A stretch of 4,521 nt of DNA from a virus (IMGVR_UViG_2740892433_000001); one strand, 5' to 3'; numbered from the stretch's first letter, positions 2,167 through 4,210 are shown. Numbers and translations are program-made. The notes: generated from the letters alone by a model not told the origin.

Positions 2167-4210
2167 TCATCCTCTCCGGATAAGGCACGGGCGTAATCTG
2201 CCAGTGTTTTCTTGTTGGTTGCTGCACCATCCTCTTCCTGCAGGCTCGCCAGCAGTGCACTGAGATCCAGCTGCCAGCGGGAAATACTGATGCGCAGCGC
2301 CGCCAGCGCATAAACGAAGCAGTCGAGCGCCTCATTGCGTCGCTTTTTGCTGTCCCACAGTATTTTTTTCCTGCCATCCACCCATTTTTCGACCTGCTCT
2401 TCAGCTGTCAGCTGCTGCGCTTCGGTCAGATCAAAAATATCCGGGTTATTCGGGAAGTGAACGGCACCGGGAAGCGGTTCATCCCCTTCCGGCGTCAGTG
2501 TGAAGCGGTTATAAATCTGCTCTTTCGCGGTATCCGTACCAATTTCGGTAAGGTAAACCCCGTTTTTGTTTCGCTTACGTGGCATGCTGGCCACAGGCTT
2601 TCCGTAGACGGATGCCCCTTTAATGGGGATCACCCGGAACAGCCCATGTTTTTTCGAGCGTTCATACACAATGGTCGGGTCAATCCCGCCAGTATCCCAG
2701 CAGATACGGGATATCGACATTTCTGCACCATTCCGGCGGGTATAGGTTTTATTGATGGCCTCATCCACACGCAGCAGCGTCTGTTCATCATCGTGGCGGC
2801 CCATAATAATCTGCCGGTCAATCAGCCAGCTTTCCTCACCCGGCCCCCATCCCCATACGCGCATTTCGTAGCGATCCAACTGGNGTCCAGCTGGGAGTCG
2901 ATACCGGCGGTCAGGTAAGCCACACGGTCAGNATCCAACTGGGAGTCGATACCGGCAGTCAGGTAAGCCACACGGTCAGGAACGGGCGCTGAATAATGCT
3001 CTTTCCGCTCTGCCATCACTTCAGCATCCGGACGTTCACCGATTTTCGCTTCCCATGTCTCACCGAGCGTGGTGTTCACGAAGGTTTTACGTTTTCCCGN
3101 GCCAATTTTCGCCTCCCACGTCTCACCGAGCGTGGTGTTTACGAAGGTTTTACGTTTTCCCGTATCCCCTTTCGTCTTCATCCAGTCTTTGACAATCTGA
3201 ACCCAGGTGGTGAACGGGCTGTACGCCGTCCAGATGTGAAAGGTCACACTGTCCGGTGGCTCAATCTCTTCACCGGATGACGAAAACCAGAGAATGCCAT
3301 CACGGGTCCAGATCCCGGTCTTTTCGCAGATATAACGGGCATCAGTGAAGTCCAGCTCCTGCTGGCGGATGACGCAGGCATTATGTTCGCAGAGATAAAA
3401 CACGCTGGAGGGATCATCCGGCGTCCATTTGAGGCCAAACGGCGTCTCTTTATCGCCAAATTTAAGGTACTGCTCCTCCCCACAGTGCGGGCAGGCAACA
3501 TGAAAACGCATAAAATGCGGGGATTCACTGGCTGCACGCTCAATCTGACAGGTGCCTCTCACTTTGGGCGTGGAGCCACGGATGGACTTTGGCCAGACCG
3601 AGCCTTCAATACGCTTGTCACCCAGGAACGTCGGAGAGCCTTCCTGTTCAATATCATCATCAAAAGCAGCAAGTTCATCATAACCCGCCACATCCACCGA
3701 CTTTTCACGGTAGTTTTTTGCCGCTTTACCGCCCAGGCACCAGAAGCCACGCCCATTAGTGAAACGCTTCATGGTGAGCGTGTTATCCCGGTGCTTTTTG
3801 CCATACCACGGGGCCAGCGCCAGCAGCGACGGAATATCACGAATAGTCGGCTCAACGTGGGTTTTCATAAAGTTCTCGGCATCACCATCCGTCGGCAACC
3901 AGATAAGGGTGTTGCGCTGCTTATGCTCTATGAAGTAGGCATAAACACCCAACAGCATTTTGGAATAACCGACACGGGCAGACTTCACCACATTCACCTC
4001 ACGGATGTAGTCGCTGCCCATCGCATTCATGATGGCCCGCTGAAAGGGCAGTGTTTCCCAGCGCCCTTCCTGGTATGCGGATTCTTTCGGGAGATAGTAA
4101 TTGGCATCCGCCCATTCAACGGCGGTCTGTGGCTCCGGCCTGAACAGTGAGCGAAGCCCGGCGCGGACAAAATGCCGCAGCCTGTTAACCTGACTGTTCG
4201 ATATATTCAC
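2163..4210 (-). CDS. A: Terminase large subunit A (lambda gpA); split in this sequence by a 63-nt in-frame duplication (3038-3163) and a compound 59-nt frameshifting insertion (2884-2942), so the ORF track shows it as two ORFs (2822..4210 and 2163..2879).
   Basis: GTG start at 4210..4208 inside the nu1 3' end (26-nt overlap). Translation [44 protein letters not shown]... continues after the breakpoint as [22 protein letters not shown]...[12 protein letters not shown] in the second ORF. Total length minus insertions is 1926 nt (641 aa plus stop), matching lambda A. TGA stop 2165..2163 overlaps the W ATG. Confidence 0.93.
2874..2979. repeat. Compound tandem duplication with two Ns (2884, 2932): a 10-mer (atccaactgg / gtccagctgg) present three times and a 37-mer present twice; net insertion 59 nt; inside A; frameshifting.
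   Basis: atccaactgg(2874-2883) N gtccagctgg+gagtcgataccggcggtcaggtaagccacacggtcag(2885-2931) N atccaactgg+gagtcgataccggcagtcaggtaagccacacggtcag(2933-2979). Both full units encode [15 protein letters not shown] with only synonymous differences. Confidence 0.88.
3038..3163. repeat. Direct tandem duplication, period 63 nt, N at junction (pos 3100); inside A; in-frame (21 codons).
   Basis: tctcaccgagcgtggtgtt at 3058 and 3121; the two copies differ at 5 positions, all synonymous third-codon positions; both encode [20 protein letters not shown]. Confidence 0.9.

Follow-up and report, generated by a model that had tools for sequence, protein, structure and literature searches.

The tandem repeats in the lambda-type head module of the window, by which we mean the whole stretch of 4,521 nucleotides analysed here, are best explained as a scaffolding artefact of de Bruijn short-read assembly in which two prophage alleles were written in series with one N between them, most likely reflecting two prophages in one isolate. 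We assign this reading a probability of about 93%. The apparent duplications are a feature of no genome and they represent nothing new biologically. The initial annotation had already read the copies as two diverged homologous alleles, drawn from two prophages of one host or from a mixed phage population; what the present analysis adds to that reading are the single-N joins of overlapping pieces and the footprint of bubble arms corresponding to k = 23.

The window matches, on its minus strand, positions 453-4611 of phage lambda (NC_001416) with 97.5% identity and a matching gene order, and it comprises the 3' part of nu1, the genes A, W and B, and the 5' part of C (Table 1). While lambda has 4159 nt over this interval, the window has 4521 nt, and the 362 surplus bases are accounted for by seven direct repeats in tandem, whose periods range from 26 to 63 nt and whose identities are 90-98%. 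The non-ACGT letters of the window are eight in number, each one a single N (77, 968, 1952, 2070, 2884, 2932, 3100, and 4469), and all eight mark a repeat junction between pieces with overlapping lambda coordinates. Splitting the window at the Ns yields nine pieces, every one of which aligns ungapped to lambda nu1-A-W-B-C, and the overlaps between neighbouring pieces in lambda coordinates amount, in order, to 55, 59, 25, 44, 10, 47, 62, and 52 nt. Gene A is called only in fragments in the deposited record, e.g., as a 239-aa GpA_nuclease piece, and a 553-aa portal protein containing an X and a 20-residue repeat, which by our reading would be artefactual, stands in a public protein collection.

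Table 1. Genes, junctions and repeat copies of the window. Positions are counted from the first letter of the window unless given as lambda-locus positions.
Feature	Position	Strand	Description
Gene C, 5' part (S49 protease/scaffold)	1..250	-	Contains the presumed 56-nt artefact
Junction 1, gene C	22..132 (22-76, N 77, 78-132)	-	Lambda-locus 422-476; 6 differing bases; overlap starts at the first difference; 22-nt tail
Portal gene B	231..1892	-	Presumed in-frame 60-nt artefact, giving 553 aa vs the normal 533; X at the N
Junction 2, portal gene B	909..1027 (909-967, N 968, 969-1027)	-	Lambda-locus 1253-1311; 5 differing bases; 22-nt tail
Head-tail joining gene W	1889..2166	-	Broken by the presumed 26-nt and 45-nt artefacts
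Junction 3, gene W	1927..1977 (1927-1951, N 1952, 1953-1977)	-	25-nt overlap; 1 difference, at offset 16; 22-nt rule broken
Junction 4, gene W	2026..2114 (2026-2069, N 2070, 2071-2114)	-	Lambda-locus 2284-2327; 4 differences; 22-nt tail
Terminase large subunit gene A	2163..4210	-	Out of frame through 63 + 48 + 11 surplus nt
Junctions 5 and 6, gene A	2874..2979	-	Piece 5 end 2874-2883, N 2884, piece 6 2885-2931, N 2932, piece 7 start 2933-2979
Junction 7, gene A, copy 1	3038..3099	-	End of piece 7 (2933-3099); lambda-locus (L001) 3192-3253; A codons 350-370; PhiR26_1/FCI1-type allele
Junction 7, single-N spacer between pieces 7 and 8	3100	.	One N
Junction 7, gene A, copy 2	3101..3162	-	Start of piece 8 (3101-4468); lambda-locus (L001) 3192-3253; lambda-type at 5/5 differing sites
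nu1, 3' part (terminase small subunit)	4185..4521	-	Contains the presumed 54-nt artefact
Junction 8, nu1	4416..4521 (4416-4467, N 4469, 4470-4521)	-	Lambda-locus 4507-4558; 4 synonymous differences; 21-nt tail, truncated where the record ends

The structure of these joins can be followed at the 63-nt repeat in terminase gene A. Two repeat tools agree on a direct repeat at 3039-3101 and 3102-3164 with a period of 63 nt and 90% identity; here, the limits of the copies were set by the N at 3100, which places copy 1 at 3038-3099 and copy 2 at 3101-3162. From copy 1 to copy 2 the record reads ...ACGTTTTCCCG and then GCCAATTTTCGCCTCCC, and translation over the 3100 junction gives the same 20-residue peptide twice with an X in between. 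The copies differ at five sites, which are the third positions of A codons 370, 369, 366, 364, and 357 (copy 1 vs copy 2: GGT/GGC, ATC/ATT, GAA/GAG, ACA/ACG, and GTG/GTA, respectively), and all five exchanges are synonymous. At all of these sites copy 1 equals phage PhiR26_1 and the prophages of FCI1, 20Ec-P-124, 1368KP, and SCEC020023, and copy 2 equals lambda. Both alleles are frequent, the exact 62-nt allele of copy 1 being present in 973 complete Escherichia coli records and that of copy 2 in 1054.

The extent of the overlaps was compared with the rule for the arms of a bubble in a de Bruijn graph, which places the start of an overlap at the first variant base and its end k-1 bases beyond the last one. 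Seven of the eight overlaps begin with the first differing base, a number reached by 1 of 200,000 permutations, and five of the eight end exactly 22 nt past the last difference, which none of 200,000 permutations reached; a sixth overlap ends after 21 nt at the end of the record. Judged from this geometry, the overlaps appear to span the variant-containing k-mers at k = 23, so that each copy would represent one arm of a de Bruijn bubble. SOAPdenovo uses K = 23 by default. Such a geometry is unlike that of duplications which were mutated afterwards. The 47-nt piece 6 (2885-2931) is 100% lambda-type and presents the alternative allele with three differences and a 22-nt tail, and the flanking sequences of pieces 5 and 7 match one another (2874-2883 vs 2933-2942). 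Junction 3 (1927-1977) and junction 5 (2874-2894; 10-nt overlap) are misfits to a two-allele bubble geometry at k = 23, piece 5 holding ten bases of the arm in excess; these two junctions may stem from gap filling or from a third copy.

The origin of the record fits with these observations. As an exact match to the 553-aa B product revealed, the window is the entire 4521-nt WGS record JSVR01000073.1 of assembly GCA_001651715.1, the draft of a uropathogenic E. coli from a clinical source; k = 23 had been derived from the sequence before this identification. [quoted passage not shown] JSVR01000073.1 is thus the product of a de Bruijn-graph assembler with scaffolding, namely SOAPdenovo. According to the passage on bubble merging in PMC3431226, SOAPdenovo merges only arms that differ by one base, or by less than four bases with an identity of >90%. 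Five junctions of the window have 4-6 differences between their arms. At junction 6, with three differences and 93.6% identity, the quoted rule predicts merging, which speaks against the simple model. SOAPdenovo2 was reported to put gaps between overlapping contigs in scaffolds (PMC5368935), and an explicit statement that SOAPdenovo sets one N between overlapping contigs was not found in the searchable literature.

From the geometry and the assembler we propose the following course of events. The lambda-type nu1-A-W-B-C module would be present at least twice in the isolate, most likely in two prophages, and its copies, being ~98-99% identical, would collapse into a single path of the graph. 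The assembler would leave a bubble unmerged at places where several SNPs are spaced within one k-mer, and one arm would be kept by the left contig and the other by the right contig; at 2885-2931 one arm would have been left as a free 47-nt contig and inserted into the scaffold. The scaffolder would then join the pieces end to end with one N and print the same lambda coordinates twice, once per allele, so that the differences between the copies would be real polymorphisms between prophage alleles.

The search of natural sequences bears on the question whether the repeats exist in any genome. We find the module in 4198 of 5426 complete E. coli genomes; the median number of places per genome is two and the maximum eight. 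Its tandem form is absent from these 5426 complete genomes and from 50,697 phage records. A query of 126 nt containing both copies has as its best places two pieces on one and the same 63 nt, the whole-window matches listed all span 4159 nt and none 4521, and the junction string GCGATCCAACTGGNGTCCAGCTGGGAGTCG gave zero matches in the viral, genome, and metagenome contig collections scanned. A reading in which nu1, A, W, B, and C really contain tandem duplications (26-63 nt) that diverged at a later time would account for the clear homology of the copies and for the five periods that are multiples of three (45, 48, 54, 60, and 63). However, it is exceedingly improbable, because an N stands at each junction and leaves no uninterrupted sequence across it, because the k-mer geometry fits bubble arms, because the tandem form is lacking from the finished genomes and phage records, and because, read literally, the insertions of 26, 56, and 11 nt frameshift the essential genes W, C, and A, respectively. 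Moreover, each copy is a different common natural allele, and later divergence would not recreate existing alleles at five of five sites. The earlier claim that the copies are not fresh duplications is borne out by the Ns, by the k-mer geometry and by finished genomes, which lack the tandem form, and the earlier view that two diverged homologous alleles were collapsed into one sequence gains support from the natural alleles, from the two prophages of strain 504838 described below, from the synonymous bias and from the SOAPdenovo origin of the draft. Among the phage records, MW057783.1 (Campylobacter phage CJLB-4) reaches an identity and bit score to the module equal to those of lambda itself, and a Xanthomonas-named record matches too; the CJLB-4 record has the appearance of lambda DNA filed under the name of a different host.

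Alleles known from other genomes were found at further junctions as well. The right-hand allele of junction 1 (locus 422 G, 430-432 TCC) is present in strains 1368KP and SCEC020023, the left allele of junction 2 is that of FCI1 and 20Ec-P-124, and at junction 4 the left copy is of the FCI1/R26 type and the right copy of the lambda type. Between the copies, several codons are exchanged at more than one base (window 86-88, 930-932, 2026-2028, and their partners), and these swaps are pre-existing natural alleles rather than local damage: CAG/GGA at C codon 55 occurs in strains 1368KP and SCEC020023, CAG/AAT at B codon 301 in FCI1, and AGG/CGA at W codon 32 is a synonymous exchange. An A at window positions 98, 576, 2879/2938, 3200, 3482, and 4446 (seven positions at six sites, corresponding to locus 442, 920, 3092, 3291, 3573, and 4537) occurs in none of nine comparison sequences and is synonymous relative to lambda in all cases; these bases are presumably private SNPs of one of the prophages of the isolate.

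Over all junctions 23 codons differ between the copies, and 19 of these differences are synonymous, whereas the other four, at codons 55 and 58 of C and at codons 301 and 308 of B, change the amino acid. If single bases of these genes were changed at random, 23% of the changes would be synonymous (binomial P = 3e-9). The ratio of synonymous to non-synonymous differences at the junctions (19:4) is indistinguishable from that obtained when the remainder of the window is compared with lambda (45:3; Fisher P = 0.2), and pairs of natural prophages show 58-85% synonymous differences, barring one pair with three differing codons only, so that the substitution pattern at the junctions matches that between natural prophages. 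Ordinary purifying selection, acting on the genes for terminase, portal and protease, accounts for this bias and makes the differences mostly synonymous; the initial annotation had invoked the same force, and the 19:4 ratio, resembling that of natural prophage pairs, agrees with it. Its counts were correct in part. The five differences at the 63-nt locus, all synonymous, were given accurately, as the A codons listed above confirm, and so were the exceptions in B, Gln/Asn (codon 301) and Thr/Ala (codon 308). At the nu1 locus it had reported three differences where four are counted, and at the 45-nt W locus one where there are four in three codons, three of them at the extreme start of the right-hand copy, while its statement that all of them are synonymous stands for both loci. 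In C the Gln/Gly exchange (codon 55) is real, but it is not the sole exception since Leu/Pro at codon 58 has to be added.

The copy differences might instead be sequencing or gap-filling errors at contig ends with no second allele involved, and contig ends of draft assemblies are indeed error-prone (PMC5368935). We regard this as hardly credible, because errors would not favour synonymous changes as strongly as observed and because both versions of the junctions match alleles in independent genomes, bar a few bases absent from the nine-sequence panel (locus 442, 3092, and 4537).

Complete genomes provide pairs of prophages with the alleles seen in the window. Strain 504838 (NZ_CP025856.1) carries both 62-nt alleles of the terminase locus in two prophages separated by ~467 kb. 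Over locus 1-3191 the modules of these prophages show no difference, and the first cluster of differences lies exactly at 3192, 3195, 3204, 3210, and 3231; the arm predicted from this pair for k = 23, 3192-3253, is the overlap observed in the window. In the complete genome of 20Ec-P-124 the two modules differ only at 4507, 4522, and 4528, i.e., at three of the four nu1-junction sites, and they carry the two nu1-junction alleles, one each. Both alleles are natural and able to coexist in one chromosome, as 504838 and 20Ec-P-124 demonstrate. The two 504838 prophages (L011, 1349631-1356292; L012, 882828-889489) share >3 kb of identical sequence covering C-B-W and the 3' part of A, diverge by clustered SNPs across nu1 and the 5' part of A, and are unrelated past nu1, which gives them a sharp mosaic boundary within the terminase gene A.

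The same artefact would result if the two alleles came from different cells, either in a mixed or contaminated culture or library in which each strain has one lambda-type prophage, or through free phage DNA. The sequence by itself does not separate such a mixture from co-resident prophages, and the alternative arms of junctions 4, 6, and 7 agree with the lambda type throughout. Laboratories often encounter lambda DNA as a contaminant. However, the second allele is not that of laboratory lambda: no full lambda allele is present in either copy of junctions 1, 2, and 8. Laboratory lambda as the second sequence is ruled out, because neither side of these junctions carries the lambda allele (409/471, 1260/1262, and 4507-4537). 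Several module copies per genome are the norm, complete genomes with both alleles exist, and the isolates of the study were described as single clinical ones (PMC4850163), so that we consider an origin of the alleles from different cells improbable and favour two prophages of one isolate as their source.

Exact matches to the long pieces between the Ns, 78-967 and 3101-4468, were not found in the 5426 complete E. coli genomes, in which the best matches reach 99.2% and 99.3%, respectively. A copying model with nine natural sequences describes the pieces as a backbone similar to FCI1 and 20Ec-P-124 with isolated lambda-type alleles, e.g., at locus 2862, 2927, 2953, 3339, and 3348, lying amid FCI1-type ones. 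The long pieces are probably a blended consensus of the two alleles, since isolated SNPs form small bubbles which were merged. Alternatively, though with a rather low likelihood, the alternation may be genuine, a mosaic that arose when the two co-resident prophages of the isolate recently underwent gene conversion, and if this were true the contig would record ongoing exchange between prophages inside one chromosome.

The scaffolding artefact of two prophage alleles has consequences for the use of such records. Through draft scaffolds of this kind, spurious in-frame repeats and frameshifts enter public collections of genes and proteins, and scans for duplications can apply a simple filter that automatically discards cases combining one N, an overlap in reference coordinates and a tail of k-1 bases. 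At the same time the artefact keeps both alleles of the most SNP-dense stretches, which indicates that the sample has at least two lambda-type head modules.

With regard to known systems, the window is collinear with the lambda nu1-A-W-B-C module and differs from it by ~80 mostly synonymous SNPs and by the surplus bases, all of which would be junction artefacts. In comparison with SOAPdenovo scaffolding as covered in the relevant passages of PMC5368935 and PMC3431226, the gaps between overlapping pieces and the five unmerged junctions with 4-6 differences are alike, whereas these passages do not contain the exact outcome of one N with both arms in series, and junctions 3, 5, and 6 depart from the simple rule. 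Kelley and Salzberg described in 2010 that uncollapsed haplotypes lead to false duplications in assemblies, which they divided into "duplicated overlapping contigs" and "duplicated contained contigs" (PMC2864568). As in their cases, two variants of one locus are placed adjacently in the window, an apparent recent duplication arises, and the differences between the copies would be real polymorphisms (PMC2864568). The overlapping kind corresponds to junctions 1-4, 7, and 8 and the contained kind to the 47-nt piece at 2885-2931. In contrast to their cases, the variants most likely belong here to paralogous prophages of a haploid bacterium and not to the two chromosomes of a diploid, and the scale is that of tens of bases, apparently single bubble arms at k = 23, instead of kilobases.
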